Part shown: in pieces, positions 14,277 through 46,836 of the stretch
Layout: each line of letters begins with the position of its first letter
How positions within the stretch are numbered: position 1 is the stretch's first letter
From: Pseudogymnoascus verrucosus
Lineage: Eukaryota
DNA length: 58,373 nucleotides
Assembly (NCBI GenBank): GCA_001662655.1
Contig: KV460243.1
Direction: 5' to 3' (one strand)
Made by a program: the position numbers and the translations under genes
The notes under the pieces: model-generated
Database searches by the model: none
Seen by the model: the letters and a program-made list of their open reading frames with translations, nothing else
Told to the model about the DNA's origin: nothing

Positions 14277-17200
14277 ATGTCGGAAAGATCATGTCCTGTG
14301 TCGGCTTCGGTTGGATCAGTATGTCCTATGGGCAACGGAGCTGGAGAGAATGGTCGCGCACGGGGCTGCAACTTTGCTAGCTTCAGCCGTCCAGAAGATA
14401 TTCATTCTACCTTTGGTGTACGTCCATATTAATCCTCCTCTCTCGAAATCAATTTAATTAACTCTTCTCAGATCCCTTCGGACGCTGATGTCACCGATTT
14501 CTTACGACAAAGGTTCGCTTTTATCCAAATTGTTTATGACTCTTGCTCATTTATTACAGAGAACGTAAAGCAATCAATGAGTTGCTATACTCCGATGTCC
14601 CTTCAATGCCGGCCATTAAAGATTTGCAAAACGCCCAAGGCACCAAAAGTCTGGACACCCTAAATGTGAACGACCAAGATCTGCTCGCCGTAGCACTCGG
14701 CGCCCCGGCTCGGCAAGTTCTCCTAAGGGCAGAAGAGGTTGGGCCCCGGACTGGTTGGAGAGATGGTTATCTAAGCAGGGAGCATGGCTTCTGTCCGCCA
14801 GATGCAGATGAGGCACCGAGTGCGTTGGCAAGATCGCCTGGCCGAGTTTGGTCCGATATGTGCGAGCGTATGCCAGGCTGTGTGGCAAGAGGCCGGGTCC
14901 GACAATCTATCGCGGCACTTCCTCTCGTTGAGGGAACAGCAGATGTTATTCCGGATAAGGCACTTTGGGCAGCATTGGTTACTCTTGGTATGCTGTGCTC
15001 CATTTACAGGTACGAGGAAACGCACAATGGCACCGAGGGTGTCAATGTCAGCACAAGGTCACCTACACCCAACGTGGAGATGAGCGATGACTTGGGTGAT
15101 GAAGTGAAGGGAATCCCCAAATGCATTGGCCTCGCCTACGTCCAAATCTCGAGGCGGATGGGTCGATCAATCCCACATCTTACATTCTATGACCAGGCGT
15201 CATATAACATTAAGGTCCGCGACCCAACCTCCACCCACCCCTATATCGGACGATTCGACAACACGGACTTGAGATGGCCAATGTTTGGTATACGGTCTGA
15301 GATTGCATTTCTCAAGGGATGCGCCGACACATCAGGTAAGTTCTCAGAGCCTCCATCTATTACCTGGTCTAATAATTTCCAGCGTCCTTTCAACACGGAG
15401 TAGACGCAATTGCAAGCTGCCAGGAATTCGTCATGAGCAAGAATAAGGCCGGCCTGCTTCGCGCGCTCATTCGATTAAAAGAAATCCTGGAGCGAATGCC
15501 CAATGCCTTTCACTCCATATCTCTGAACCCGAGCTCTGGGGCCAACTTCGTCTCGCCCCCAGAATGGGTCCGCTGGGCGAAATTTTCGGCTCCGCTCTCT
15601 AAGCGCTGTCCAGCAACTTCCGGTCTGCAATTTCCACCATACCTGCTGATGGACGCCTTCCTCGGCCGTACAAAGTACGAAAGCTTTCTCGGGGAAGAGG
15701 GACTCCACCTTCGGGCGTGGTTGCCATCAAACTGGAGAGCTTTCATCGCCGCTGTCGAGTATCATTACAGTATTCCCGATTTCGTCAACCAATCAGGCGA
15801 CCCCAGACTCATTGGCGCTTTTGACGGCATTGTTGAAGCTTATACCGGCGAACGCGGATTTATGGGAACGCATCGCTACAAAGTATTTGGCCTTCTTGAG
15901 ATTGCTGGAAAGACAGGAAGAGCAGAGACAAATGGGAACTCCGGATCTGCCGAGGTTAATGCTAAACCACATGAAGAGACACACAAGGCTTTCTCCGACG
16001 CAATGAAGGAACGCCTCGAGCCGCATCGTGGTAACCTTCATCTAGAACCTCACGAGATGCGTGGCTCATTTGCCGAGTGCCGATATAAGTCAACTGTCCT
16101 GAGCCGATCTCTAGTGGACTCCGACCCGGAGAGGTCGATTGCTAGGGTCATTATTGACATTCAGGATACTGGTATCACGTTTCAGCCTGGCGATCGCCTC
16201 GCAATAATGCCTCTCAACAGCTGGCTGGAGTGCGCAAAGGTTGCAGCTGCTCTCGGCCTTGACGTTATGCTTGAAAGCCCCGTTTCTCTTGATAATCAAT
16301 GGAATAGATTTGCAGATCACCTTGGTTCAGTATCAAGGACGCCAACACCACGACTTACCGTAAAGGATATCCTACGCCGGGGTCACCTCGCACCCCTCAC
16401 CAAAGATCTCGTCATGAAACTTCATACATTGCTCCGAGCATCGTCGAACACCGTTCTTCAGATCCTTGCAACAACCGAGTGGCCCGTGCGAGCTTCTCTG
16501 GGCGACCTTCTCCAGGCAGCTGTCACTGATACTCCTTCCAAAATTTGGGATCAAGCATTTGACATCTCGGGAAATCTCTCGTGGCTCCCCGAGATAGTTG
16601 CACTTGAGGTCCCAAGAACATACAGTATCTCGAACTACCCCGACGAATTGTTGCCTAGTACCGTCGAGCTTACTGTGTCGAGGTCTGAGTACAATATCTG
16701 CCCTACTCTCGCTGGACCAGAGCCCGTGGTTCGATATGGAGTCGGGAGTGGCTTCTTAAACCCGCCTGTCTCCGGCCAAGACGAATTCATCACAGACGAC
16801 GAGGAGATACTTATTGGCATCTCGCGGCCTCTTTCTTTCCAACTGCCGATTGATGATGCCGCTCCGTGTGCATTCTTTGCCGGCGGTAGCGGTATTGCGC
16901 CGTTTAGAAGCTTTTGGCAATCCCGTGCCGGGCGCTCCGTTGGAAAGAATCTCTTATTTCTTGGTGTACAATCGCGAGAAAAATTCTGCTACGAGAATGA
17001 GCTCCGAGAATACGTCAACGCTGGCTTTATGGAAGTCTACACCGCTTTCTCGCGCGATTCTCGCGGTCTCAACTACGACAGCTATTTGCGGGACTTGGTA
17101 GAGAAAGAGACAACACCACGATATATCGACTCTTTGATTGTGGAGCAGGGATCTACGGTCTGTGACCTTGTTATGTCGAAGAAACAAGGCGGCTTAGGAG

Positions 17201-19251
17201 GCTATCTATACGTCTGCGGCTCCCTTTCTGTGTTCGACTCCGTCATGTCTGGAATTCGAAAGGCAATTTACAACCACAGGACAGCCAGCATGGAGTCTAC
17301 CAGCGTCATTCTTGATACTGCCTTTGCAGAGCGCCGCTTCATGCTGGATGTGTTTATGTCACCGAAACCACTACCATGCAACATACCGACGATCCTCCCT
17401 TCCCAATTGGCAATGCACACAGGGCATCGCCCGAACAGCCGCATCCATATTGCAGTACATGGGAGTGTGTATGATGTTACAGACTTTTGTCCCATGCATC
17501 CTGGAGGGACGATGATTATCCAATCGAACGCAGGAGTTGATTGCTCAAAATCTTTCGATCTCCTTGCTCATTCAAATAACCCCGAGGTCTCTAGTCTCTT
17601 GAATAAATACTTCATTGGGCATCTCACGCCAAAGCCCAATTACCGTAAGTGCGAGGACATCAGCATGCTCTACGATCTTTGGTCTGATTATTTGAGGACG
17701 TCGGTTGAGACGCTTGTGGGAGATCAATTTGAGACTCGCGAATTTATGGACTCGACAAATATTTGGTTTCAAGGTAGTCTCTTCAACATGGGTGGTGTGC
17801 GGAGTTTCTATCAACACCAATCGAGGTTGCTTCAAAATGGTTTCTCGGCTCTATTTGGCGCCAAACTCCAAGAGCTTTATCTTAAGCTTTCTTTCACTCT
17901 CGCAAACAGTGGAGCAAGCTCTGGCCAACTTCCAGATGTTTTAGGCGTCATTGGCCGTGCGAAAAGCTCACCGGATGCGATGATAACCTCAAATGAGGTT
18001 TCCCAAATCGGGAAATTCACTTGTGACAGTGAAGCGGCTCGTTTCCATGAAAGAGGCATCATAGAATATGTCAAAACATCTATTCAACTTAACTTGGAGC
18101 TCTTGGAGGGGATTCGCGAGGAAGCATGCTGTGGTATGGATGCATTTGATACTATCATGGATCTTGAGGTATCATCGGAAACTCAACGTCTCACCGCGCT
18201 GTCCACATTCCTCCTACAATTGACCGAGCGCATGGCCATCAGATTGGAAGGATTCTATTCAAAGCTGGCCCAGCATTCCGTCTACCATCCAGAAATGGAG
18301 CACAACCCCGCAAGGACTCGGTGGAATTTGGTGAAACGCAAAGTGCGCGACGGTTCGTTCTTCGTTCTGACACAAAACGTTGCGATCAATACAGGGGCCA
18401 GTTACGTGCCTCGCCGAGGCCAAGAGGCTGTCGAGTTCGACCACGTTATTACTCAGATCCAACACAGCATTAACAAAGCGCCAATTCAAGTGAGGAAAAC
18501 AATGGAACTCAATGAGCAGCATATTGCTCGAGGACGCACAAATCCAAACGGCGTCTCGGCGAATGAGTCTCATGAAAATAGCCACGCCATGAACCGCATG
18601 TCATCTTTCGTAAACAACAACATGCGCGCCATCCGCCGACTCAGCAAACTTCCGCCGGCGGGAGTAAGCCTTGAACAGCTGATGAACACATACGGCAACT
18701 CAGCTCATCAATCTTACGACCGCCACCCCGCAGCCATGCGCAGCCTGACGCCAAACCAAAGTCGTTCGCCATCAGTTTCTCGCGAGCATGATGGTTTCGA
18801 TCCTCATCAATTGAGCAAGCTCAACGTCCGGGGGCGCTCGGTATCAAATGCCGGTTCCTTAACGCGGGGCTCTAGTCACAGCAGTCATGTCTCTTCTAGT
18901 AGCCACATGGATTTCCATCTTCCCATGACAATGTCACCTGCTCTCACGCCTCCTTCTTCGGCGCCACAGTCGTCCGCCTCCTCTCCTGTGTCTCACACCC
19001 CAGCATCGGCAGCTCTCCCATCGATGTTTAACAAGATGAACAGGCGGCAGAAATCCAGCGATATGGCCCCGACTCTCGCGAGCCTACCTGAGAACCGTAT
19101 GCGAAAATTGATGCAAGGTAGTGCGAGTAATTCTGGGGGTTACTCGTCAATGCTGCCCAAGGATAGTGGTTCTCACATGCGCGCCCGCTCCACAACGGGA
19201 TCACTCAGAGCGCTCAAGCTGCCCGAGATGCGAGTTGCGCCAACATTTTAA
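14277..19251 (+). CDS. ~1608-aa multidomain oxidoreductase: IDO-like heme domain + FAD/NADPH reductase (CPR/NOS-type FNR module) + cytochrome b5 + uncharacterised helical domain + Ser-rich tail
   Basis: Exons 14277-14417, 14472-14512, 14560-15335 and 15383-19251 splice in frame. IDO-like motifs: TSGLQ...MDAFLG, LRAWLPSNWRAFI, GTHRYKV. Reductase motifs: FQPGDRLAIMPLN, PRTYSIS, AGGSGIAPFRSF, TAFSR, YLYVCG, FMLDVF. b5 motif: HGSVYDVTDFCPMHPGG...AHS. Confidence 0.88.
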
Positions 19252-19339: not shown

Positions 19340-19559
19340 AGCCGTCTAGCCCTGATATGTGGAAGTACTTGCGGTCATGCTTAAAAGTGCGATTCGGTAA
19401 TGAGCCTGATGATACTGTCATCTCTTGGCGATGCATTTGCTACGAGACATTCGCGTTGTGTTCGTCTCAACAGCCCCGGAGTGACGGCTGGGAGGATTAG
19501 CGGCAGTGAGGCTAGAGGCAGCTCCTCCTCCTTTTTGACAGCATAGGCCATCATCTTCG

Positions 19560-20380
19560 TTGAGGACTATAGAGACCCACAAGTATGTTCCTCCCGCTCT
19601 ATCTATCAATTCTTCAACTACGTTATTCTTTAGATCTGCAGGAAAATGACGAAGCTCTGTGACTCTACCCTCGATAACAATTCCGAGGTCCTTAGGTCTG
19701 GCCTTAAACTCCATGTAAGTGTCTCCAAGCTCAATGTTGATGTCCACAATGGGTCGGCTTGTGATGAGCAGTTTCATAGTTGGAGAGAATTTTCCTCTGC
19801 TATTTCGGTCGTAGAGAAGTCTCTTCATCCGACGGCTCAACCTCTGCCGTGTCTTTTCATCCTCGCTTTCATCTAGGGCGTCGAGGACGCAATATATAGT
19901 CCTTTTAATGGGAGCTCGGATGATCTCTTCAAATACCTCCTATAACTCTTCTTCTAATTCTACCGAAGGATCGCACTCAAAAAAATGCACTTGACAGTTT
20001 AGAAACGTCGGTAGTTATGGGCAATTGCTTGATTAGCGACCGCAAGCACGACTCAATGGTCCGAAATTGCTCGTCTTAGTCGTAAAAGAAGAAGTAGATG
20101 ATGCTGTCTTGTTCCTGGGTTTTCGCTAGCCGATCATACAAGTGGTCCAGGATGAACCTCAAAAGAAAAGTTTTTCCTTGACCAGGAGCGCCTCTGACCC
20201 AGAGAAATGATGATTTATCTTTGATAGCCATGTATTTACCATTTTGTCACGTAATAACCACTGCAGAGTTCCCCGGGCCGGGCTCTCGGCTCTTCGGAAG
20301 GAGGCATAATCTGGTGCATTTAGAGCCTTCACGTATCTTGTCTGAGCAGCTGAAAATGCTATTTTAAAGTTCCATACCAA
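19560..20380 (-). pseudogene. NACHT NTPase (fungal NLR-like) fragment
   Basis: GTLQWL, then a -1 frameshift into Walker A FLWVRGAPGQGKT, an in-frame TAA after YFFFYD, Walker B YCVLDALDE, LLITSRP and RAGGTYLWVSIV; truncated. Confidence 0.85.
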
Positions 20381-21002: not shown

Positions 21003-23015
21003 CTAGTATTGTTCGCCAAATATCACCCAACCCAAACTCTCAGTAAATGCCTCCTCTGCCCACTTTCGCTCTCTCATGAGGTGCTCTTGATCTCGCCTTG
21101 CCTCATCGATACCAACTGGCCAACTGTCTGCCATGTCCGTAATCAATTCGGCTACCTCTAGTGGAATTCCATGTGAGATAAGTATGCCGTGAACTTCCTC
21201 CGACCACCAGACATGCCCCTGTGGAGGCACGTTTCTTGTCGAACACACGCGGTAATGTGGATCAACCAACGATAACATTACGAATCGGCGGTGCCCTGGG
21301 ATGGTCGCATTAATTATTGTAACTGGCTCAATGCGGTGTTGCAGAGTATTGGGCCATGTAATGAGACGTCCTTGTGGTGCGGATATAGACCCAACTTCCT
21401 GCATGGGCGGTATGGAACAACTATGGGTGGGTTTAAAGCCAAGCATTGCCTCGATATCGACAACATCAACTTCAAACTCACTTGGTTGGAGTGCCCCATT
21501 ACCTCTATTGTAGTTATAATCCTCCTCTCCTGCATATGTTCGTTGACGAAAGGAGATTCGGGTTTCAGTTGTGTTCTCAACGTCGAAGAAGTACATGGCC
21601 GTGGCTACGATATGCTCATTCAAGGTATCCATATGCCAGCCATTAGTATATGACGGTTCAATGCTACCAATCTTGACGATAACTTGTAAGCCTTGATCAC
21701 GAAACGTATCTTCTAATTTGACAGAGTAAAACTCGTGATCTGGGTCTGGTCGTATAATGACGCTTTCTGTCTCGTAACCACCCCACTTCCCTTTAATCGC
21801 CGCCCCATTTCGACCATCCTACCAATCATTATATGAAAACGACATGTCAGGCTCTGGATGATGTAGTTTGTATGCATTTTTCCATTTAGCATTGACGTGC
21901 CATTCTGTATGGAAATGCTTATCCCAACCTTCCGGAAGGTCTGTTGGTTGATTTGAGCCGCGGTTTGGAAGTTTGAGGAACTGTTCAGCCTCTTTCATCG
22001 CCTCTTTATAGGCGTTAGTCTCGCAGCCTTGGTATAACCCATCTATTATTGATGACTGAGGATATTCTGGTTCCCATGTAAGACCATATGTCCTAATCCG
22101 TATTGGCCAACGACCTTTCTCCCCTCTAACAAGGCACTCATTCCACGGCTTGATTGCTAGTGAAATAAGCTTCTCAATACTGTCATACATAGACTTGTGC
22201 CGCAGAGGATGCAGATTATTGATGTATGAAGTGATGTGGGCATCCGTGCCCGACTTGTCGAATTCAACCTCGCATGGCAGCAGCTGGAAATTAGAAGACC
22301 AGTAGAACCGTTTGAGTTCATCAAGCTCATTAGTACAAAATACTACAGCATCGCCTTCTTTTATTCTCAGCTCAACACCAGAGGTATCCATTCGCTCATC
22401 TAGCTGCTTTGGAGCGGGCCTTCCGCTTCCAATCAACTTAAAGCCATCTCGTAGGCCTACTCGGCCCTCCATCAACACTGACGTCTTTCCGAATACTAAA
22501 GGGAACAACGAAGGGTCGACAAGCATTTGATCTTGATCCGAATACGACTTCTTAAGCATCGGCGCAATGCCATCCTTTAGCGCAAGACGTAGACAATCAG
22601 AAACGAGCGCATCTGATTTACACACTGCGGACCCGGCGTCGAAAAGGCGAATGAGTTTGTCTTCCTCAAACATGGACGCTTTGTCACGAAGCTCCATGAT
22701 ACACCAACCCCATGCCCTTCCGCTAATCAATCGCATTCGAAGCGCCACCCGGACCTCAGCGTCCTCTTGGGCCTTGAATGTCTCTTCGCGCCACTTTGCA
22801 ACAATATCATCGTTGAATACGTCGATATTCCAGTCACGCTTGTCAGTCAAGTCGCTCATGAGTTGCAACATGGCCATCTCAGGTGCAGTTAGGGCAGGCC
22901 TTTGTTCCAATCCGCTTACGGCGTCAGCAAAGCGATCGTCGGCGCCGAGTTCCTCATAGAGGGATCTCCCACCAAAGCCAGGAACTGAAAGTGGCCTTTG
23001 GCCGCTATTATCCAT
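21003..23015 (-). pseudogene. DUF4246-family protein with a single in-frame stop
   Basis: LVDPSLFPLVFG, FQLLPCEV, ITSYINNLHP, GLQVIVKI, WH..LNEHIVATA.Y, PNTLQHR and LVDP motifs. The two ORFs are in the same frame, separated by TAG at 21819-21821. Confidence 0.82.
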
Positions 23016-23282
23016 CCTATATTCAGCAATCAATATTTGATTACAAGGCGGCGTGTCGAATTGTCAGCAAGAAATCCTCTCCCGTAGTATGTTGGGAGTG
23101 AAGTCAGGAGTGAAAGTTGGCAGTCTACAGCCTGCATCTTTTTGGTGGAAGCAGGACTTGAGCTCCGGGATACGGTGATTTTTGGCCCTGGAATGGCAGT
23201 TTCCCGACCGCACCGTCCTACTCCCGGATTGGCTCATCGGTGCGACAGAGCATACAGTCACCGGAACCTGTCACAAACTGAG

Positions 23283-33898: not shown

Positions 33899-34668
33899 CT
33901 ACTCATCGTCCAAAATCCGACTCGCCAGCGGCCCAAAGAACGGGACCTCACACCGATCAAGCGTATCCGCTACACCACCGTCAGCACTTCCCTCTCACCC
34001 ACAAAGCCACACCAGAAAGAGCACTCACCATCCTTATAAGCTCTCATCGTCAAATACCCAATCATCCCCACATCCCCCACCAACAACACCCAGCTCAAGA
34101 AACTCGACCACGCAAACACCAGATGCACCACAAACATCGCACTAAACAGCAGCGCCGACTGCCACGCATGGAACCTACACAGCATCAGCTTCACCCCTCA
34201 CCAAGTCACCACCGCCCCAGCTGCCCCCCTCCAGCCACACCCCCCAAACTCACCTCACATAATCACTCTTCCACTCCACCAACAACAACCCCACTGCCCC
34301 CGCCGGCGGCAACGCCAAATACGCCAAACACGCCTCATAATCCAACCTCAACGGCAAGCTCGTCTCGTAATCATGCAGCGCTTCGCGCCCGCGCCCACCC
34401 ATCTCCACATCCCTTGTATTCGTGAACCCACCACCACCACCGCCCTGTGCCAGCGGCGGACTACCAGATTGCGCAGCCCATGGGTTTGCGTGGGATGTTT
34501 GGAGGGGAGGAGAGGCGGAGGTGGAGCGCCGGTCGTTGGGTGGTGGTGAGAGGGTGCGCGTTGCGTCGGGGGAGGTGTCTTGTGCTCGTTAGCTTGGTTT
34601 GGTTCATTTCCTGAGCGCCGGGGTTTCGTAAGGGGTATGGGCGAACCTTGGTACGGTGCGAAATCCAT
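33899..34668 (-). CDS. UPF0132-like small membrane protein
   Basis: MDFAPYQ|..., YETSLPLRLDYEACLAYLALPPAG, KSDY|VRFHAWQSALLF and AYKD|ADTLDRCEVPFFGPLASRILDDE*; 4 exons. Confidence 0.8.
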
Positions 34669-35720
34669 TTTGGCAACGGCGACGACGACGAACTCAGCAG
34701 CAACGGCCCTGTTGAAACGGGAGCGAGCGTGGTAGAAAAACTCAAACGTGGACTTGGGAACGGAGTGTTGGTGGGTTGGGCGGTGGTCGCGATATACTTT
34801 GACAGTTCGTGCTAGCTACGCGGGTTGCGCGGCCATGGGGCGTGAGGTGGGGCAAACAGAGCAAACAGGGGGGAAGGGGCGATGATGGGGGGTGGGTTGT
34901 GGCACGTGCGCGATTGGGGGTGGTGGTGGTGGGTGCTATGGGTAAATAGAGATCGGGGGTTGAATACCCCGGTGCTGGGCACGAGGACAGACTGTGCATG
35001 AACGATGGGAAGGGGGGGGGTTGTATGTTGATATATGGAATGGGGAAGCATAGATATATAAATCAGGGGAGGATCACAGAAGCATATTTACATTGACATT
35101 CACTGGGCCCTGGCTTGGAATAACTTCACCCCAAAAGCAAAAAACTAGTTGGTCCCCGCGTCCAAAGCGTTCAATTGCCGCATCACCAGAACGGCTAATC
35201 GTACTGTATATGGTATGGAATTGGAATACACATCCACCATCCCCGTTCTCGTCTCCTTTTCATCACTCCCCTCCCCATCCCGTTCGCTCCCTTCTTGAAA
35301 AAGACGCTCAAAAAGATAACACCCCCTCTCCCATTCACGACCCCCCACTTCAACGCAACGCATTCCCTCAGCCCTCTTCCCATCCTGTAGAAAGGTTTCC
35401 AAAAAAAAATGGTAACAAAAACTAAAACGTAAAAAGTTAAAATAGACAAATCGAAATCGAGTAAACAAAGCCCGCCAGCCTCCTGCCTCACTCCTCCTCC
35501 CAAACCACCTGAACCCCCTTGGTGGGGAGCGGGGATGGGAGGGGGGGTGGTGATGGGAGGAGGCTGGGCTGGGGGGAATCAGTTTCCGTATATGCACCGC
35601 GCTCATGTTATCCTGCCCTAAAATCGCCTTATGTCGTGTCTCTGTGTGTGTGAGTGTGTTCACCCTGCCCGTTGTCGCCCTACTCCGTGTGTCCCTGCCA
35701 GAGGTCCTGTGCCATCCGGC

Positions 35721-36852
35721 TCACCTGAATTCAATTGCGCCGTAGGTCCCGCGGTCGGGGACGTGCTTGAGCTCGAGCTGTTGGAATCTAGGGAGTGTTA
35801 GTCAAGACCTTGAACGGCTGATGCTGATAGTAAAGGGATACGCACTTCTCGCTCTTCGCATGGAAGTAAATCCCGCTCACGCTCCCACTCCGCTGGTTAA
35901 AGCAGATATAATAGAAGCCCTCGAAACTCGCCCCCGTAATCGTGCGAACCCGGTGGTCCGGGACGAGGAAGTGCTCCTTCCAGCGCATAAAGATGTTCTC
36001 CCGCTGCGCCAGGTTGGGGATATGCAGGTTCCCCCGCCGCGCAGCCTTGCTGAAGGGCCGGAACGCCTGGAACTTCGACCAGTGCTCCAGGTCCACTTTG
36101 TCCGTCGAGCCCCAGTCGTCGTGCTTGGTGAGGAAGGAGTACTTCGACCCGATGATCTCGCCCTCGAAGTAGGTCGTCAGGGTTGGGTGGTCTTCTGTCA
36201 GGCCTGGCCGCGGGTTGGGTTAGCATCTATCATGTATGTATATAGTTCGAAACGTTGGTTGGGGGGTCGCACCTTGTATGCGCAGGTATCCGCACAGCGA
36301 CGACTCTCTCATATCGACATGTTTAATCTCAACCTGCACCTCATAAACCTGTCTCTCCGAATGCTGCGTGCCGCGAAACTGGCTTCCCGACCGCAAAAAC
36401 GACGACGGCGACGACGGCTTCAACTGTATCAGGCCAACTCGTCAGCACATGCCTCCCAAAAACCCCTCTCCATCACATCACGAAGCACTCACCCGGACAT
36501 TAGAGAACTCATAGCTCATCGACGGCGAACTCCCTGCATAACTCCTCCTCAGCACCGGCGCCTCCCTCTCCTTCTCCTCCCCCTTCTCCTCCACACTAAC
36601 AGGCGACAACATCTCCACGCTCGCCCGCTCCCCCGCCTCAACCCTCTTCATCATCTGCTGTCCATCCGGCGGCGGCGGCGTCGGCGTAGCGCTCTGGCTC
36701 CCACCACCACCACCCACAGCCTCTGACTCCTCGCTACCCTCGACCGCCACCCACGCCTCCCCGCGCTCCTCCTCCGGCGGACACGACGCGTGGAGCCTCA
36801 TCGCCTCCTCCGCCGCCGCCGCATCCACTCGCACTGATGGCGTGCCTGGCAT
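35721..36852 (-). CDS. GID4: GID complex substrate receptor Gid4/Vid24
   Basis: FLRSGSQFRGTQHS, LCGYLRIQG, TTYFEGEIIG, DLEHWSKF, IFMRWKEHFLVPDHRV..ITGASFEGFYYICF, SEK|FQQLEL and EFR*. Confidence 0.93.
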
Positions 36853-37754
36853 ATCGATATCGGAATCGCTCGCTCGATCGAATCGTGGCGCCCACGGCCG
36901 AGTCCCGCTGGCCCCGTCGCACGGTGTGGAGCCCGCTTGGATTCCGGGGTATCCTGGGTTCGTACTGTACAATCGCTGTTGGTTGGTGAAGGGGAGGGGG
37001 AGGTGTTTTAATCTGACGGTGCCGGGGCGGCGAAATGCATCGCTCGGCTGATGGGGTGTAGGGGGATTGTTGAGGGTTGTGTAAATGTCGTTGATGGGAT
37101 GGAGAGTGTGTGTTGTTTATAAGGCGGGTTTCGTGGGGTTTTTGGTGGCGGGAGTGGATGGATGCGATTGTCGATTCTATGACCCCCATGGGTGCCAAGG
37201 CTGGCCTGGGTCCTGGCTTACCAGTGGTTGGAGGGAACTAAAAGGGACGGATGGGGGGGGTTCCAAGGTCCAATCCCCGCAAATAATGTCTTTCACCCCA
37301 CGGACGGCTCTTTTTTTTAGACCGATGGTGAAAAATTATGGTAGGTACAGTGTCGGAATTGGATATATAATATAATTTATAGATCATTTTAGAGATAGAG
37401 TGTGCAAGCATCACATATAGATGAACATTAAAAAACGTCAATGTGACAAAGTGTCAGAGAGACAAAGTGTCAGGGTGGCAAAGTGTCAAAGTGTCAGGGC
37501 GAAAGTGCTGGAAAGGCAATATTCCTCCTCCATGCGGATATCTACATTCATTTGATCATGTTTGGTCTGCTTGCTCGGTCCCTGTGGTCCTTGTACAGCT
37601 GTACAGCCTCAAAACGCACGCCTTTTCTTGTAATTCCCCTGATCAACCTTCAATGGTATCGAGAAACACGATACAAAACGCCCCGTTTCTCCTAGCAAAA
37701 TGCGCAAATGCCACACAACGCCCCCCTTCTTCTTCTTCTTCCCCTTCCCACTGC

Positions 37755-38573
37755 TCATATCGGCTTGATCTTGAAGTGAAGGCCTATCAGCGAGAAGACG
37801 AGCGCCTTGAGGTCCTGCACAAGATAGTAGAAGACGCGGAGGCCTTCTGGGTCGGCGGAGTCGCTGACGTCGACGAGGGATCCGATCTTCGCTGTCTGGA
37901 TTGCGCAAGTGTTGTCAGTATTCCATCCCAGCACATCGTGACGCAAAGCGCAGCAGGCATAGCTTACCTCAAACGAGATGTGGTCATTCCCCAGTCTGAT
38001 CTCCAGCTCCTGTCGCCCGTCCTTGTTCTTCTGCGGCCACTTGCCATCATCTTCCCTGTGTCATCGTCAGCACATGTATATTGTGTGTTGTAACCAGCCA
38101 CCCTTTGCTTGACATACTTCAGGATCTCGCTGGTCTTGATAATGCGTTTGATCTCGTCAATCATCGTCGAGCTGACGCACACTACACTCATCCTGATTAG
38201 CTATACACCCAACCAGCAGGGGCAATCGGCCAGACGCACTCTCTTTCCGGATCAGGGAGTCATTGCGGTAGTTTGAGTTGTTCGCATATCGCGCCGATGC
38301 GCTCCTTCCATCGCCGAGCACGCGGAAGTCGAACTCTGGAGGAAGGCACAGTCAGTGGATGCGCAGCGGGAGAAGGGGCGGGCGTGTGAGAAAGGCACCT
38401 ACCTAGGAATTCATGGCCGTGTCGACCTTGGTGTCCTGAGCTGTAGAGTGAGTTAGACAAGACAGAGCTGCGGGGTATATGGGGTGTATTGGGTCAACGG
38501 GGAGGGGGTAGAGCAAGACATACTAGTATCGGACATAGAAGGGTTCAGAGTTTGCAGCACCGGTGGCAGCCAT
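37755..38573 (-). CDS. mago: Mago nashi (exon junction complex core), 6 exons
   Basis: [42 protein letters not shown] and [32 protein letters not shown]. Confidence 0.97.
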
Positions 38574-39207
38574 GTTGACTCTGAGTCTATAAGCCTGTGC
38601 CTATAAACAATTGATGCAGCTAGAGAATGAGGTTGAGGCTGCAGAAGGGTAGATCGTGGATATATATTAATCGCAGAAGGTCGAATTATTGTCTCAGCCC
38701 TGTCAAGCTTTCGCGACTGAGACCACCCAAAAGACCTAGTGGACGGTTCAAACACCACTATAAACCACTACAACCACCAAAATGACACCCTTGCTCCCAT
38801 TTTGGCGGGGCAGAAATCCCAAGGTACCACTCCACCCACCAAAACCGCCGCTTTCACGTGACTTGAATCGAACACATCGCTTAATTCACGGAATCTCCAA
38901 CGTGGTTCTAACTAAGGGGATAGAGCCGCAATTAAGAGAGCTTGCGGTTGATTGTTTGTTGATTCTCTGTTGATAAGCCTCACCTCACCAATATTTATAC
39001 CCTTGGGGACTCCGACTCTACAATCTTTTAACTACAACTTCCTGTTGACGCCGATCCCTCCGTCGACAAACCCTCCGCAAACCGACCGACCGACGGCCAC
39101 TGCCCGCGCATCGAACTGAAGCTGGGGAAACACGCAAGTCCTTGACCGACAAGGAGCAAAGCCACAGCCCACAGGTCCGCCCGATTCGGGGAGCAAACAC
39201 ACACACA

Positions 39208-42200
39208 ATGGCCTCCTTCCTCGAGAGCTCCTACAGCTTGGTGCACCAGGATAACCTCTCTGATGTGCCCTCCATGTCCGAGCTGCGCACGCAGCTTGAG
39301 AAGGGGACCGACGAGACCAAGATCGATACCATGAAGCGCATCCTCACAATTATGCTCAACGGCGATCCAATGCCCCAACTTCTTATGCACATCATCCGTT
39401 TCGTCATGCCCTCCAAGAATAAGCCCCTCAAGAAGCTCCTCTACTTCTACTACGAGATCTGCCCCAAGCTTGACGCCGGCGGGAAGCTCAAGCAGGAGAT
39501 GATCTTGGTCTGGTAGGTTCACCACATACATCTTCAATGATTCATAGCTAACTATAACTGCAGTAACGGGATCATGTTCGACTTGCAGCACAGCAATGAG
39601 TATATTAGGGGGAATACGCTCCGTTTCCTGTGCAAGCTCCGCGAACCCGAGCTCATTGAGCCCCTCCTCTCCTCGGTCCGATCCTGCCTCGAGCACCGCC
39701 ACGCATATGTCCGCAAAAACTCTGTTTTCGCCGTCTCCTCCATCTTCCAGCTCTCGGAAGCCCTGATCCCCGATGCTGCCGACCTGCTTGCGGCCTTCCT
39801 CGAGACTGAGAGCGATCACACATGCAAGCGCAACGCATTCGCCGCGCTCTCGAGCATCAACCACGACAAGGCCTTGGCATACCTCAGTAGCGTCTTCGAC
39901 GGTATCCCCAACGCCGATGAGCTAATCCAACTCGTAGAGTTGGAGTTTATCAGGAAGGATGCGTTCCAGAACCCCCAGAACAAGGCCAAATACCTGCGCT
40001 TGATCTTCGATCTCCTCGAGGCGGGTGCTTCCACAGTGGTATACGAGGCAGCGTCCTCCCTAACGGCATTGACGAACAACCCGGTCGCGGTGAAGGCAGC
40101 GGCTGCCAAGTTCATTGAGCTGAGCATCAAGGAGGCGGATAACAACGTGAAGCTTATCGTTCTCGACCGTGTCGATCAGCTACGTCGCAAGAATGAGGGT
40201 GTTCTGAACGACCTTACCATGGAAATCCTCCGCGTGCTGTCTAGCCCAGATATCGATGTCAGGCGCAAGGCCCTCGAGCTGGCCTTGGAGATGGTGTCAA
40301 GCAAGAACGTGGCTGATGTTGTGCTTCTCCTGAAGAAGGAATTGACAAAGACTGTTGACCAGGAGTACGAAAAGAACAACGAGTACCGCCAACTCCTTAT
40401 TCACTCGATACATCAATGCGCCATCAAGTTCTCCGAAGTTGCCGCAAGTGTCGTTGACCTGCTGATGGATTTCATCGCCGATTTCAACAGCACCTCGGCT
40501 GTCGATGTCATCTCGTTCGTAAAGGAGGTTGTCGAGAAGTTCCCCAAGCTCCGCCAGACTATCGTCGAGAGACTGGTCTCGACCCTGAGCGAGGTCCGCG
40601 CCGGAAAGGTTTACCGTGGCGCACTCTGGATTGTTGGAGAATACTCTACGGACGCCAATGACATTAGAGACGCCTGGAAGCGGATACGCGCCAGTTTGGG
40701 TGAGATCCCGATACTGGCTTCCGAGCAACGGCTACTGGATGAAGGATCTGAGGGCCAGGAGGAGAAGGAGGCGGCCACGAACGGCACCGACAAGCCATCA
40801 GCACCCACCGGTTCAAGGAGGGTCTTGGCAGACGGCACATATGCGACCGAGAGCGCTCTCACAAGCACATCCGCAGTACTGGCAAAGTTGGAAGCTGTCA
40901 AGGCTGCACAAAAGCCGCCGCTCCGTCAACTTATCCTGGATGGCGACTACTACCTCGCCAGCGTGCTGTCGTCAACCCTCACAAAACTTGTCATGCGCCA
41001 CTCGGAAATCTCCAAGGACGAGGCACGAACAAACGCCCTCCGCGCTGAGGCTATGCTGATCATGATCTCCATCATCCGCGTTGGACAATCGCAGTTCGTC
41101 AAGGCTCCTATTGACGAGGACTCAGTGGACAGGATCATGTCTTGTGTGCGATCGCTGGCGGAATTCGCGCAGAAGAAGGAGCTCGAGACTGTGTTCCTTG
41201 AAGACACCCGAAAGGCCTTCAGGGCTATGGTCCAGGTTGAGGAGAAGAAGCGCGCGGCGAAGGAGGCGGTGGAGAAGGCCAAGACTGCGGTCCAGGTTGA
41301 CGATGTCGTTCAGATCCGCCAGCTCGCCAAGAAGAACGCGAGCGATGGCGCTGATGAGATTGAGCTCGACCTCGAGAAGGCGACTGGAGGCGACACTGCA
41401 ACTGAGGATCTCTCGTCGAAACTCAGCCGCGTCGTCCAGCTCACCGGTTTCTCGGATCCAGTCTACGCCGAGGCGTACGTCAAGGTCCACCAGTTCGATA
41501 TCGTCCTCGACGTCCTGCTCGTCAACCAGACCACCGAGACACTGCAAAATCTGTCTGTGGAATTCGCCACCCTCGGTGACCTCAAGGTTGTCGAGCGCCC
41601 GACGACACAGAACTTGGGTCCCCACGACTTCCAGAACGTCCAGTGCACCATCAAGGTCTCATCCACCGACACTGGTGTTATCTTCGGCAACGTGGTCTAC
41701 GACGGCCAGAGCTCCACCGATAACAACGTCGTCATCCTCAACGACGTCCACGTCGACATCATGGACTACATCCAGCCAGCCACCTGCACCGAAACGCAGT
41801 TCCGCACCATGTGGACCGAGTTCGAGTGGGAGAACAAGGTCAACATCAACTCCAAGGCGAAGTCGCTGAGGGAGTTCCTGACGCAGCTTATGGCGTGCAC
41901 TAATATGACGTGTCTGACCCCCGAGGCTTCGCTGAAGGGCGACTGCCAGTTCTTGAGTGCGAATCTGTACGCGCGCAGTGTGTTTGGTACGTTTTTATCC
42001 TTCTTTCTTCCGTTCTTCCATCCTTCCTTCACTTCTAGGGGAGTTATCAAGTATACGGGATATTTACTAACATATCACAGGCGAGGACGCGCTAGCAAAC
42101 TTAAGTATCGAGAAGGAGGGTGACGACGGCCCCGTCACAGGTTTCGTCCGCATCCGCAGTCGCTCACAAGGCCTGGCACTAAGCCTGGGTTCGCTAAAGG

Positions 42201-42229
42201 GCCTCAACAAGGTCGGAGAGGTGGCTTGA
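39208..42229 (+). CDS. SEC26: Coatomer subunit beta (COPI)
   Basis: [66 protein letters not shown] and [14 protein letters not shown]; introns at about 39513-39562 and 41987-42080. Confidence 0.97.
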
Positions 42230-43058
42230 GCAGGGCCAGCTGCTGGGTAGTTGAAGAAGAGGGGGGTTACGGAACATACTAGAGCGCCTTCGCCGGCTGC
42301 AAAATGGATGAATTATGGGGACTGTGTCATGTCTGGGTATGTTGGGAGGGGGGCTTTATGATTGTGATGGAATGGGGGAGGGGGATGTAGTGCTAGAAGC
42401 GTTACATTGGTATATAATGCGAGCCACGCCGTTGTTTTGCGAAGAGAGGAGGCGCAAGAAAAGAAGCATTGGGCGTTTTTTTATGTAGAGACGTAGTAGG
42501 CATTTGCAATAGTAAAGAATTGATAAATGAAAGGGATTCGACGATGTGTGTGCGTGTGTTTATTTGAGGGGGAATTCACTTGTTAGAGTGTTGTTGCTTG
42601 CAGGATGAATATATATAACAAAGTAAGTAATTGTTCACTCATTATTCACTCAAGCGGCCTTTCACATGCAAGACATTTCTTTGTACTTTATTCCTCGTAT
42701 TTTAATGTTTCCCGTTTAATTAATTTATTTGCGTCTATTTTTGATCTATTTCCCCAGATCACAGGACAGGAACCCAGACCATCTAACCTCTCGGCGTTAT
42801 TGTTCCGACCCGTACTACTACTACTACTACACTACTACACACCACTACAACCTTCCTTAGTAAGGTAGCCTGGGTAACGGCCATTGCGGGATTACTACCT
42901 ACCTCCTCTTACTCTTATATTCACTGTCTTTATCTTCTCTCCTCTCTCCTCCTTCTTCTGTTCCTTCTTGTCTCCCCTCCTACTCATTCTCAAGCAAGAA
43001 ATCCAAAACGAAAAGGCATATATACAGCATGCTTAGACCACCACACTCGCTATAAGTA

Positions 43059-44905
43059 ATGACCGACCACCACGCAACACCCGCATCGCCCACCCGGGCC
43101 TCCAGCGACCCCTTCATGGACCCCGCTGCCCCCGACGCCTCCGGCGATGGAGACATTGACTTCGCGCGCGACACCACCCTCGTGGTCGGCAAAGATGCCA
43201 GCCTCACCCTCGGCACCGAGTCGCTGATTGTACTTGGTGAGCACTCCTCCTCCTCCTCCTCCCCTCTCCTCGCGCCCCTGCGCCGGACAGCCCGGCATTG
43301 GGCAGCACAGACACGATCCATGGAGCCAAACTAACGGGCTGCTTCGCGCCCAGATGACGATATTCAAAAAGACGGAAAGACGTCGTGCTGCGCGCTGTGC
43401 CGGCCCGGTACGCACCCCCGCCGCGCGCACTCGTGACAACAGCGAGACAGCGAGCCACCGCACTCCAACAAACAACAGAACTAACAGCGCAAAACAGGAA
43501 GCTCCAACACCCGCGCCATCCCCTTCTACAACGTCCTCTGGGCCGAAACCTCCGACACCCTCCTCACCATCTCCTTCGCGGCCCCCATCTCCAAAATCGC
43601 CGTCCGCCCAGAATTCCTCACCTACCCCCTCCCCCTCGACCCGGGACCAGCACGCATCTGGATCGCCAAGCTCCTCGACCGCGCGTACGGCGAGTCGCAG
43701 AAGCGCAAGCGCGCGAAGGTGCTCCTGAACCCGCACGCGGGGAAGGGCAGCGCGGTGAAATGGTGGATCAGGGATATTGAACCGATTCTCCGCGCCGCGC
43801 ACGTCGAGCTCGATGTACACACCACCTCGAGCCAGGGGGAGGCGGTCACGATCGCAGAGAAATTGGATATCGAGGCCTTTGATATGGTGGTCTCGTGCTC
43901 GGGGGACGGGCTGCCGCATGAAGTTTTCAATGGGCTTGGAAAGCGCCCGGATGCTCGGCGTGCACTGGCTAAGATCGCGGTCGTGCAGATGCCGTGCGGT
44001 AGCGGGAATGCGATGAGCTGCAACTTGACGGGCAGCGCGAGCCCCAGTCTCGCAGCCCTGGCGACGGTAAAGGGTGTCGTGACGCCACTGGATCTCATCT
44101 CCATCACGCAGGGGTCGACGCGCACGCTGTCCTTCCTGTCGCAATCGGTTGGCATCGTAGCCGAGTCTGATCTGGCGACTGAGAATATCCGCTGGATGGG
44201 ACAGGCGCGCTTCACCTACGGCTTCCTGACCCGACTGCTGAAGAAGAGAATATACCCGTGTGATTTGGCTGTCAAGGTCGTGATTGAGGATAAGGCTGCT
44301 ATTAGGGAGCATTATCGCCAGGAGAGTGAGAGGAGGGGTACGTTGGGCGAGAGACGCGGGAATAAAGATGAGAACGATGATGATTCGGCGGCCAGCACGA
44401 GCGCGGCGAATGAGGAGGGATTGCCGACGTTGAGGTATGGGACGGTCAATGATAAGTTGCCTTCGGACTGGGTGAATGTTCCCTATGACACGTTGGGCAA
44501 TTTCTACTGCGGTAATGTAAGATACCTCCCACCATTCCCATTTTCGCACACAAGGAAGTTTGTTAACATAAGCAGATGTCCTACATGGCCGCCGACGCAA
44601 ACTTCTTCCCCGCCACCCTGCCAAGCGACGGCCTCATGGATCTAGTCTGCATCGATGGCCGCATCGCGCGCACCGCCGCCGTGGACCTCATGCTCGCCGT
44701 CGAGAATAACAAGTTCTTCGACAAGCCGCTCGTCAGCTACCGCAAGGTGCTCGGATACCGCATTGTTCCCCGCGAGCAGGAGTCGGGATACATCAGCATC
44801 GACGGGGAGAGAGTGCCTTTCGAGCCATTCCAGGCGGAGATTCACCGTGGGTTGGGGACTGTGTTAAGTTGCTCGGGGTGGAAGTACGAGGCGCAGGGCC
44901 CATAG
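43059..44905 (+). CDS. LCB4: Sphingoid long-chain base kinase (Lcb4/Lcb5, sphingosine kinase)
   Basis: LLNPHAGKG, CSGDGLPHEVFNG, PCGSGNAM, AESDLATENIRWMGQARF and ISIDGE; includes a 54-nt mini-exon at 43354-43407. Confidence 0.92.
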
Positions 44906-45194
44906 TTGGGGGGGTGTCTTGTACAAGAGGGTAGGAGATGGGGAATAAGGGATGATGATGGATAGGATAGCGTTTGGAGATCAGTTTTTCGTCGCGTCGC
45001 GTCATGGCATGATATACCCAGGAGTTGCCATAGTCGAGGACGCTTGTATAATAGACTTGTGTAGATTGTACAGAATGCATTAATCGTCACCTCTTGCCAA
45101 CACCAGACGCCGCTGTCCCTCCCATGCACTCCACAGCCTATTCCATCCTCCAATAATCATCTGCTCAAGCACGCACATCACTTTTTTTCTTCCT

Positions 45195-45986
45195 TCACTC
45201 CGCAAAACCCCCCCATCCCTCATCCTCCTCCATAACCACATCCTCCTTCTCATTCCCCGGCAACCTCTCATCAGCAAGCGCCTCCTTACACTTCTTCCTC
45301 ACACTCTTTGTCGGGCTCTCCGTCCCCAACACCTTCAGCGGCTCCAGCAGCACCTCGAGCTCAACCCCCTTCCTCTTCTCCCCCAACCCCCCCGCCCGCT
45401 CCAACTCATCCACCCAAACATCAATAACATGGTACCTCATCCCATTCGGCACGCCCCTCGCCTCCGGCTCCAACGGTCCCTCCCTAAGCACCCTCATCTG
45501 CTCCTCCACCACCTCAGCTGTCCACCCCTTATCCGCGCACTGCGCAAACGCAGCCCCAACATACCGACGCGTCAGCAGCAGAAACTTCTCCATCCTCAAC
45601 ACATCGATGCGCGTCCACTCCCGCGCCATAGTAGTCCAGAACGCAGCCGTGAACGCGGTGCGGTTACTCGTGTGCGTGATTGCTGGGAGCGCGGCGAGGG
45701 AGGCGGCGAGGGATTGCTGCGGGAGCGGACGGTCGGTGAGCCACATTGTGTAGAAGAGCGCGGTGTGCAGCTTGAGGAGGGCGTCTTGGGGGAGGGAGCG
45801 CCGGCCGGAGAGGTAGGTGCGCAGGGAGTCGAGGGCGTTGGTGCGGGTTTGGCGGTCTAGAGGGGGGGGTTAGTGGGGTGTTCTACATATGTTTTGAACA
45901 ATGGGGGAGGGGGAATTACCGGGAGAGGCGAGTTGTTTGACGAAGGGGGTTTGGGAGAGGTCGGGGGTTGAGGTTGAGTCGGTCAT
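45195..45986 (-). CDS. RRP1: Nucleolar protein Rrp1/Nop52
   Basis: PFVKQLAS|.DRQTR, LFYTMWLTDRPLPQQ, MAREWTRIDVLRMEKFLLL and NGMRYHVIDVWVDEL. Confidence 0.92.
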
Positions 45987-46836
45987 ATTTGCGGTTTTGG
46001 AGGGACTTTCTTATCTCTCTTTTCGTCTGGGATGTAAAGAGAAAGATCGACGTTATCTGCGTCTAGTTTTCGAGGGGACGTATATTCTCGAATCGCCTAC
46101 AGCTCGTCGCGCTATTGAGGAGCTGGGATTGTAAGAGCGAGGGGGTTCTGGGCTTCTGTCGCGGCTACGACGGGGCGCTGAGGTGGGGGAATGGGTTTTG
46201 AGGTGTCGGCGATAAATAAATTTTGGAGGAGAATTTGGCGCGGGGACGCTAGGCGCGGGGCGCTATGTGCGGGAGTGGCGTGCAGTAGCGTAGGGTCGAT
46301 TGGGCTTGGCGGGGGGAGGATGGGAGGATGTTTATTTGATTTATTTATTTACGGAGGGATAAAGGTGATAATATTATAATAATTTGGATGAACTGAATCT
46401 GAGTATGCTAGATTTTAATTCTTGCTTGAAAGCTGAATCAAAGAGTGATGTTCGAATAAATTTACTTCTGGATTAATATTTTATTCGACAGTCAAAAAAT
46501 ATTAAATGCTAACAAGTTATCTCTCCCTCTGCCCAATGAGCTATTTACGGAGCATAAAAGCTATAAAAAAGAATGAGACCTGCCCTCTGATATATTTAGT
46601 TCTCGAATGTTAGAATCATGTCTTTGTCTGTCGCCGAAAGCAGTCTTGCCATGCTCTCGACAAAGAGAGCTGGTGACAATGAAGCTACATTCTCCAATGG
46701 AACAACCTCTTCTTCAGAGTCTACTATTAAATGCCTGACCTTCCTCATAAATTAGAGCCATGGCATCTATCCTGTTTCCTCTTCATCGCCTGTATCAATA
46801 TATATATCTTTATAAATATACTGATCACTTAATAGC

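Follow-up and report, generated by a model that had tools for sequence, protein, structure and literature searches.

Background

Can a heme enzyme of the indoleamine 2,3-dioxygenase (IDO) fold carry, in one and the same polypeptide, the modules that would supply its heme with electrons? P450 BM3, nitric-oxide synthase (NOS) and flavohemoglobin are heme enzymes of this self-sufficient kind, central to our understanding of biological electron transfer and much used in biocatalysis; the two proteins that keep human IDO1 ferrous in cells, cytochrome b5 and b5 reductase, are separate from it. The question is raised by a gene at positions 14277-19251 (+ strand) of a stretch of 58,373 nucleotides from the fungus Pseudogymnoascus verrucosus (assembly GCA_001662655.1, contig KV460243.1; "the window" hereafter means this whole stretch). 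The gene encodes, in this order, an IDO-like domain, a reductase module for flavin adenine dinucleotide (FAD) and NADPH of the CPR/NOS type, a cytochrome b5 and a helical C-terminal domain (C-domain). An earlier reading of the letters of this DNA (the original prediction) had taken it for a fusion with an internal electron chain ending on the heme of the IDO-like domain. We find that the fusion is real, and we hold, with slightly better than even confidence, that its product is a heme oxygenase with the IDO/PrnB fold, His-ligated and self-reducing ("self-sufficient").

Structure of the gene

The original prediction spoke of one spliced open reading frame (ORF) of about 1608 amino acids, and this turned out to be exact: in the model retained from those tested by script, the gene has four exons, and its coding sequence of 4827 nucleotides specifies 1608 amino acids and a stop. 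Two long open frames can be seen on the + strand, at 14540-15403 and 15376-19251. Exon 1 (14277..14417, residues 1-47) starts with the ATG at 14277, is followed by a GTACGT donor at 14418 and is collinear with P0001, a hypothetical protein of Pseudogymnoascus sp.; exon 2 (14472..14512, 41 nucleotides), flanked by a ..CAG acceptor and a GTTCGC donor, is needed both for the frame and for a gapless match to P0001. Exon 3 (14560..15335) contains the Pfam IDO match, encodes the N-terminal half of the IDO-like domain and is followed by a GTAAGT donor at 15336. Exon 4 (15383..19251), which lies within the second ORF and contains Pfam and PDB matches, encodes without interruption the rest of the IDO-like domain (its C-terminal half), the reductase, the b5, the helical domain, the tail and the stop. 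All four exons are on the + strand, the three introns (54, 47 and 47 nucleotides) are all of the GT..AG type, and the deduced protein is identical to P0001 at 1486 of 1608 positions, with no gaps.

Introns 1 and 2 are placed by canonical splice sites and by collinearity with P0001. Intron 3 is precisely absent from a contig of run X3, which we guess to be RNA and in which 15335 is joined to 15383, and it is retained in the DNA-like sequence X5. The short contigs of runs X1-X3 (all guessed to be RNA) stop short of introns 1 and 2 and are uninformative on the ends of the transcript.

Could two adjacent genes, one for an IDO and one for a reductase-b5 protein, have been misread as a single gene through an error of annotation or assembly? 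The gene is indeed broken into pieces in short ORF-based database entries, and no contig of the presumed RNA runs spans it entirely. We nevertheless find this scenario hardly credible and reject it. The IDO domain continues for 183 residues past intron 3 into the very ORF that encodes the reductase; the splicing of intron 3 is observed; a contig from a related fungal metagenome (L075:9938-14671) carries all four Pfam domains in a single unbroken ORF of 1578 amino acids; and intron-free bacterial genes repeat the architecture in the same order. Because exon 4 is a single ORF, and because of these concordant observations, the predicted fusion of IDO-like domain, reductase and b5 is real and not an artefact of the gene model. 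All four Pfam families were also recovered in each of the full-length homologues scanned (7/7).

The N-terminal domain

The IDO-fold heme domain covers residues ~77-503 (14606..15933, + strand, crossing intron 3), as delimited by the envelope of the family hidden Markov model on P0001 (77-503). Exon 3 alone matches the Pfam IDO family (PF01231) with 27.5 bits for a cutoff of 26 (E 1.7e-6), and P0001, used as a full-length proxy, reaches 46.1 bits (E 3.8e-12). A profile of fungal N-domain fragments retrieves human IDO1 at E 1.1e-14, and a broader profile including remote relatives retrieves IDO1 at E 4e-34 and IDO2 at E 1.8e-33, across IDO1 residues ~17-339. The four stretches in which the likeness to IDO had originally been noticed are found where they were announced (LSREHGFCPP at 14771-14800, ATSGLQ...FLG at 15613-15666, LRAWLP...AVE at 15709-15759 and DFVNQ...EAY at 15778-15843), and HMMER aligns each of them with the IDO1 stretch that had been named.

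Since the N-domain of the window protein is split by an intron, the AlphaFold2 model of this part was made from a proxy, P0121, a fragment of 712 amino acids that is 83% identical to it. Comparison of such a model with IDO1 and PrnB had been proposed as a check of the fold, and its outcome is favourable. Foldseek matches the model with IDO1 (E 6.5e-11, TMt 0.70-0.76), and VIA gives a Z of 29.7 for IDO2 (360 residues aligned, root mean square deviation 3.0), 28.2 for IDO1 (model residues 68-489 against chain residues 12-401), 24.2 for PrnB and 20.7 for the bacterial IDO-like protein SO4414, then 10.8 for TDO and 9.5 for MarE; the matches with IDO2 and IDO1 cover 351-360 residues. Because the Z values are 24-30 for IDO2, IDO1 and PrnB versus 10.8 for TDO, the modelled domain is of the two-domain (small plus large), all-helical IDO/PrnB type and not of the TDO type. 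Its identity to IDO1 and IDO2 is 19-21%, and the resemblance, first suspected by eye and now seen in Pfam above cutoff, in profiles and in the fold, is far beyond chance.

The candidate for the proximal heme ligand is His483, in the motif G-T-H-R-Y-K (15871..15873, + strand), proposed on the basis of conservation and fold. The pattern G.HR.K around it occurs in 36/36 full-length fungal orthologues, the residue is invariant in alignments A4 and A5, and it is the only His common to the 94 remote representatives, among which it is 95% conserved. The Ser-Gly loop of the heme pocket and the Gly/Thr-rich loop that follows the proximal helix are also conserved, and from bacteria to fungi the IDO fold retains its heme-pocket motifs.

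This raises the question of whether the protein is simply a genuine tryptophan or indoleamine 2,3-dioxygenase, in which b5 and reductase would only rescue the autoxidised ferric heme (an "auto-reactivating IDO") and the reaction itself would consume no electrons. The idea has its merits: the best matches, in sequence as in fold, are IDO1 and IDO2, the two pocket loops just mentioned are conserved, and the activation of IDO1 in vivo requires b5 and b5 reductase. We consider it rather unlikely all the same. The Arg with which IDO1 binds the carboxylate of tryptophan (which we take to be Arg231) is not conserved; it aligns with a Glu in the fungal family, in a loop whose alignment is uncertain, and in the broader profile it sits in an insert that has no counterpart. 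Because of this, and as far as sequence can tell, the substrate is probably not free L-tryptophan. Besides the low identity to IDO1 and IDO2, fungi possess separate canonical IDOs, and the EF-hands, FHA domains and REC-CBS partner found in relatives (see below) would be odd company for a catabolic dioxygenase.

The reductase and the cytochrome b5

The central part of the protein (16102..17355, + strand) is an FAD and NADPH module of the CPR/NOS/CysJ type, FNR-like with a connecting domain, as testified by Pfam, PDB matches and motifs. It comprises FAD_binding_1 (PF00667; 16102-16707, E 9.3e-10) and NAD_binding_1 (PF00175; 16876-17094, E 1.4e-7), both on the + strand and above cutoff. The closest solved structure is the nNOS reductase (E 1.5e-15), SiR-FP being matched at E 4e-13 and CPR as well, and the connecting domain resembles that of SiR-FP (Z 8 with VIA). 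The window protein has the motifs RTYSIS, GGSGIAPF, YVCG and LDVF, and in the full-length fungal orthologues R.Y[ST]I[SA] and Y[VI]CG are each present in 36/36 and GG[ST]GI[AT]PF in 33/36. As anticipated, no FMN (flavin mononucleotide) domain accompanies this module: the exon translations have no Pfam match to a flavodoxin/FMN domain at E<=1, and the linkers between adjoining modules (~55 and ~20 residues) are too short to contain one, so that the reductase is the FNR-like half of a diflavin reductase. It is not a CysJ in the sense of the NCBIfam equivalogs, whose cutoffs of 432-838 bits are reached neither by P0001 (66-88 bits) nor by a bacterial relative (106-113 bits).

The cytochrome b5 domain (17407..17625, + strand; Pfam Cyt-b5, PF00173, 53.8 bits, E 2e-14) matches the microsomal and mitochondrial b5 chains of the PDB at E 1e-10. 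Both axial ligands claimed for it are present, His1025 in HPGG (17497) and His1049 (17569), and the combination of HPGG with a His 24 residues further on is found in 36/36 full-length fungal orthologues.

The kinship of the reductase with that of NOS suggests another possibility, namely an enzyme that handles nitric oxide (NO), either a flavohemoglobin-like NO dioxygenase/reductase or an unconventional NO-forming synthase; "NOS-like" would then be a correct label for the function and not for the family. A heme domain combined with an NAD(P)H/FAD module follows the same logic as flavohemoglobin, and partners that sense Ca2+, phosphorylation or nucleotides (the EF-hands of Rhodelphis, FHA domains, a CBS or REC-CBS gene, all described below, and a cyclic-nucleotide (cNMP)-binding protein near some bacterial loci) would suit a signalling enzyme. 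On the other hand, the Pfam scan revealed neither a NOS oxygenase domain nor a thiolate-type heme site, and no feature of the sequence is specific to NO; we therefore regard this possibility as unlikely. As for NOS itself, the likeness consists in a heme domain that precedes an NADPH/FAD reductase of shared lineage and, in relatives, in an EF-hand that would provide regulation of the Ca2+ type. However, the window protein lacks the NOS oxygenase domain (no match to this family in either exon translation, the NOS matches in the PDB being limited to the reductase), the FMN domain and the calmodulin site, and its heme is predicted to be ligated by His and not by Cys. It is not a member of the NOS family.

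A widespread architecture

The original prediction had called for a census of this architecture across fungi, and the outcome is that it is not specific to fungi at all and is far wider than had been supposed. A full search of representative proteins yields 480 representative protein clusters at E<=1e-3. Orthologues are present in many plant-pathogenic fungi, and two paralogous families, sisters in both of the trees discussed below, exist in this kingdom: one of ~1600 amino acids, to which the window gene belongs, and one of ~2400 amino acids, found for example in Cyphellophora europaea. Several of these longer paralogues (P0247, P0261, P0263, P0266, P0271 and P0305) have the IDO-like, b5 and C-domain parts in common with the shorter family, and their more than 1000 additional C-terminal residues have no Pfam match at E<=1e-4. 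Outside fungi, the architecture was recovered in Rhodelphis marinus, whose proteins end with EF-hands, and at 72 bacterial loci belonging to Chloroflexota, Actinomycetota (including Nocardioides immobilis), Myxococcota, Cyanobacteriota/Sericytochromatia, Bacteroidota (Aquimarina), Armatimonadota and others. The intron-free bacterial genes at L026 (Nocardioides immobilis) and L043 (Aquimarina agarilytica), for example, encode ~1,100 amino acids. Some relatives possess N-terminal FHA or GGACT/AIG2 domains.

In the remote relatives, at 28-39% identity, the order of the modules is unchanged. The Pfam scan detects IDO, Cyt-b5 and at least one reductase family in 12/28 of them and all four families in 9/28, and our custom models detect both FNR and b5 in 62 of the 66 remote representatives of at least 900 amino acids.

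Sixteen representative clusters (670-749 amino acids) associate an IDO-like domain with a b5 and have no reductase; the C-domain is present in 15 of these 16. They include P0278, P0315, P0316, P0319 and P0321; the composition of P0278 is confirmed by Pfam, and one cluster, P0321, comes from a metagenome-assembled genome of Polyangiaceae. This bacterial form of ~700 amino acids represents a second architecture that the family has in nature. Because these proteins keep the IDO-like domain and the b5 yet have no FNR, the constant core of the family is the IDO-like domain, the b5 and the helical domain, with the reductase inserted between the IDO-like domain and the b5. Such a layout would be expected if b5 passed its electrons straight to the IDO-type heme and the flavin module fed b5.

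These forms also bear on the idea that the IDO-like domain is not catalytic at all and serves as a sensor of heme or gas, or as a regulator, with the reductase-b5 part, like Ncb5or, delivering electrons to other proteins, for example desaturases or P450s. Fusions of b5 and reductase that work for external partners are known, the conserved C-domain, for which no fold match is available, could dock such a partner, and substrate-binding residues cannot be assigned in the IDO-like domain. Nevertheless, proteins made of an IDO-like domain and a b5 make little sense if reductase-b5 is the output of the system, and the conservation of the heme pocket from bacteria to fungi is difficult to reconcile with this scheme, which seems to us quite improbable.

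As for the history of the gene, a quick IQ-TREE tree of 49 rows, read as unrooted, puts the eukaryotic rows on one side of a branch with an SH-aLRT of 100; 37 of the 86 rows had been left out of it, 12 for their long branches and 25 as redundant bacterial sequences. A FastTree tree of all 86 rows agrees, with Aquimarina as the nearest bacteria (support 80). A recent transfer from bacteria into fungi is supported by neither tree.

Proposed function

In the scenario that we favour, that of a self-reducing heme oxygenase, NADPH would reduce the FAD of the CPR/NOS-type module, the FAD would hand over electrons one at a time to the fused cytochrome b5, which would stand in for the FMN domain of diflavin reductases, and b5 would in turn reduce the catalytic heme of the IDO-like domain, where O2 would bind and a small substrate would be oxidised. 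The helical C-domain and the tail would be accessory, perhaps for assembly or regulation. Electrons would probably be spent at each turnover, as in a monooxygenase or an NO dioxygenase, and not just for an occasional reductive restart; we lean towards the former because the Arg that binds tryptophan is missing and because of the signalling modules added in relatives. The gene model, the four modules, the fold, the conserved residues for cofactor binding, the lack of an FMN domain and the distribution among organisms are established by the data; this relay and the catalysis, together with the occupancy by heme and FAD, the order of electron transfer and the substrate, we infer from the architecture, from the IDO-b5 forms devoid of reductase and from the known behaviour of b5 and FNR modules. 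In b5 reductase, nitrate reductase and flavohemoglobin, a module of the FNR type passes electrons to b5 or straight to heme.

Several points weigh against this scenario and should be stated together. The Pfam IDO match in the fungal proteins spans profile positions 7 to ~216 out of 412. The AlphaFold2 model of the N-terminal part is of moderate quality (mean pLDDT 65.6, with a core at 70-90) and is that of a proxy. His483 had been said to sit where IDO1 has its proximal ligand, H346; the position of its codon at 15871, its conservation and its location in the corresponding helix all stand, and the exact register is doubtful, the fungal profile placing it, without gap, 3 residues past the proximal His of IDO1 in the HMMER alignment, and the alignment with the broader profile ending 7 residues short of that His. 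His483 is thus a probable ligand by conservation and fold, and not by a residue-level superposition. In terms of chemistry, a dioxygenase has no stoichiometric need for electrons, and a fused reductase is also compatible with mere re-activation; besides, the FAD may transfer electrons directly to the catalytic heme, bypassing b5. The original prediction knew of no characterisation of this architecture, and our full-text search of the literature likewise found no biochemical characterisation of any natural IDO-reductase-b5 protein. Finally, according to PMC4948021, PMC10607626 and PMC4778047, knock-outs of four fungal genes that may belong to this family (NCU05006, NCU05185, NOL2 and NOL3, see below) leave NO, growth and conidiation unchanged.

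Comparison with known systems helps to situate such an enzyme. With IDO1 and IDO2 it shares the two-domain fold, a conserved His, the candidate ligand, on the proximal helix and, probably, b5 as the donor; it differs from them by the carboxylate-binding Arg, which is not conserved, by the offset or insert of 3 residues before the proximal His and, above all, by having fused to itself the b5 and the reductase, which are separate proteins in their case, in addition to a helical domain and a tail. It belongs to the same structural superfamily as PrnB, TDO, MarE, SfmD and TyrH, the His-ligated heme-dependent aromatic oxygenases (HDAO), which includes enzymes other than dioxygenases, as stated in PMC11791213. 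PrnB and the other HDAO enzymes are stand-alone proteins encoded mostly in biosynthetic clusters, whereas the window gene has no conserved neighbours across 28 fungal loci and no biosynthetic ones in the window. The union of a catalytic heme and an NAD(P)H-flavin reductase in a single chain recalls P450 BM3 (CYP102), CYP116B and flavohemoglobin; these, however, have the P450 or globin fold, and their shuttle is FMN, an Fe-S cluster or none, versus the heme of b5 here. A relay from FAD/NAD(P)H through b5 to a final centre in one polypeptide is also that of assimilatory nitrate reductase and Ncb5or, from which the window protein differs in that its flavin module is of the CPR/NOS type with a connecting domain, and not of the b5-reductase type, and in that its last station is an IDO-fold heme instead of a molybdenum cofactor or an external acceptor.

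If the self-sufficient oxygenase proposed here exists, an IDO-fold enzyme with a b5 heme as shuttle would solve the problem of self-sufficiency in heme enzymes in a new way, and would be a natural Rosetta-stone proof that IDO-type hemes are reduced by b5 under physiological conditions. The bacterial orthologues, being free of introns, make the function directly testable.

One may go further and imagine an ancient and hitherto unstudied class of flavo-diheme enzymes common to bacteria, protists and fungi, built on the core of IDO-fold heme, b5 and helical domain, usually with an inserted NADPH/FAD reductase, placed under a signalling control that differs from lineage to lineage (EF-hand, FHA, CBS or REC-CBS partners), and making or destroying a small molecule used in signalling or defence; NO is one possibility, an oxidised derivative of indole or of an amino acid another. 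This proposal, taken as a whole, is a tentative one. If it is true, such enzymes could be behind some of the oxidative chemistry of NO or indole that lacks an explanation in filamentous fungi.

The helical domain and the termini

The fourth part of the protein had been left without assignment by the original prediction, and so it stays. Residues ~1070-1420 (17632..18684, + strand) form a conserved, all-helical C-domain with long helices in the AlphaFold2 model (pLDDT 76.1), for which no match above noise was obtained in four resources: Foldseek gave none at E<=0.001, the best Z of VIA was 8.2 for a BAR-like fold, which is the noise level for helical bundles, recognition in the ESM Atlas was low and limited to look-alikes from tethering complexes, and Pfam offered nothing but DUF6331 at E 0.17. 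The domain recurs in the fungal paralogue of ~2400 amino acids (E 1e-38 to 1e-48), and it has a weak kinship with the region that follows b5 in bacteria (hhalign probability 67%, E 5e-5, over 190 columns). That it serves in dimerisation is a guess on our part.

The protein ends with a Ser/Pro-rich tail of low complexity (18685..19251, + strand), defined by its composition: 188 amino acids, 41 of them Ser, terminating in ..APTF. The last three residues, PTF, recur in 23/36 orthologues, most Dothideomycete sequences ending otherwise. At the other extremity, residues 1-35 (14277-14381) contain Cys-Pro at 6-7 (S-C-P-V) and at 16-17 (V-C-P-M), then R-G-C. Two Cys-Pro occur within the first ~21 residues in 26/36 full-length orthologues, and one in 4 more. 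Judged from the sequence, this pair looks like heme-regulatory motifs or like a small metal site.

Names given to the family and the nitric oxide of fungi

It had been predicted that automatic annotation would name such proteins after NOS or CPR, and this is what we observe: names based on the reductase dominate database records ("sulfite reductase flavoprotein alpha-component", "NADPH--hemoprotein reductase", "related to nitric-oxide synthase"), and a few records read "putative indoleamine 2,3-dioxygenase". NCBIfam contains no family for the whole protein, and none of its families reaches its cutoff. The architecture is already visible in public databases as a combination of Pfam domains. The family is large, and yet most of its records carry the name of the wrong enzyme.

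This matters for the study of NO in fungi, which PMC4778047 and PMC4948021 describe as devoid of canonical NOS, with the source of their oxidative NO production unresolved. In PMC4948021, PMC10607626 and PMC4778047, NCU05006 and NCU05185 of Neurospora crassa and NOL2 and NOL3 of Magnaporthe oryzae are presented as "NOS-like" genes that BLAST searches with NOS had brought up. They probably correspond to the two paralogues of the IDO-reductase-b5 family. Searches for "NOS-like" genes in fungi thus probably pick up this family, and once its true function is known it will be clear whether the trail leads nowhere.

Genomic context

In bacteria, a gene for a pair of CBS domains is located directly upstream, on the same strand, at 44 of the 67 loci for which upstream sequence is available (for example L001:5517-5960 and L016:5153-6019). 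Its product has ~150 amino acids, or ~288 when fused to a receiver (REC) domain. RidA is encoded at 10 bacterial loci, and a PIG-L/cNMP-binding protein at about 15. HxlR regulators are found near the Aquimarina genes.

In the window, the neighbours of the fusion gene are an MFS transporter, an aldehyde dehydrogenase, an NPHP3_N/NACHT-like fragment, a DUF4246 gene and a Zn-cluster factor. No ORF family outside the gene recurs in more than 3 of the 27 fungal metagenome loci and window compared (27 loci of at least 9 kb out of 65, the 38 shorter ones being left out). Membership in a biosynthetic cluster is rejected on account of the non-biosynthetic neighbours in the window and of the lack of a recurrent neighbour family in this comparison; the gene is a stand-alone unit.

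The NPHP3_N/NACHT-type NTPase fragment (19418-19939, - strand, E 9.6e-7) is convergent with the fusion gene and begins ~170 nucleotides past its stop. The DUF4246 gene (21003-23063, - strand) consists of two abutting ORFs in the same frame, separated by one stop codon, whose Pfam coverages overlap (profile positions 3-224 and 215-401); it either has an intron containing a stop or is a pseudogene. Further off in the window lie housekeeping genes for coatomer beta (39541-42123), SET (47151-48251) and ATG11 (50257-54306). The G+C content climbs from 0.46-0.50 to 0.53-0.58 around ~34000-46000, and the part with high G+C is that of the housekeeping genes.

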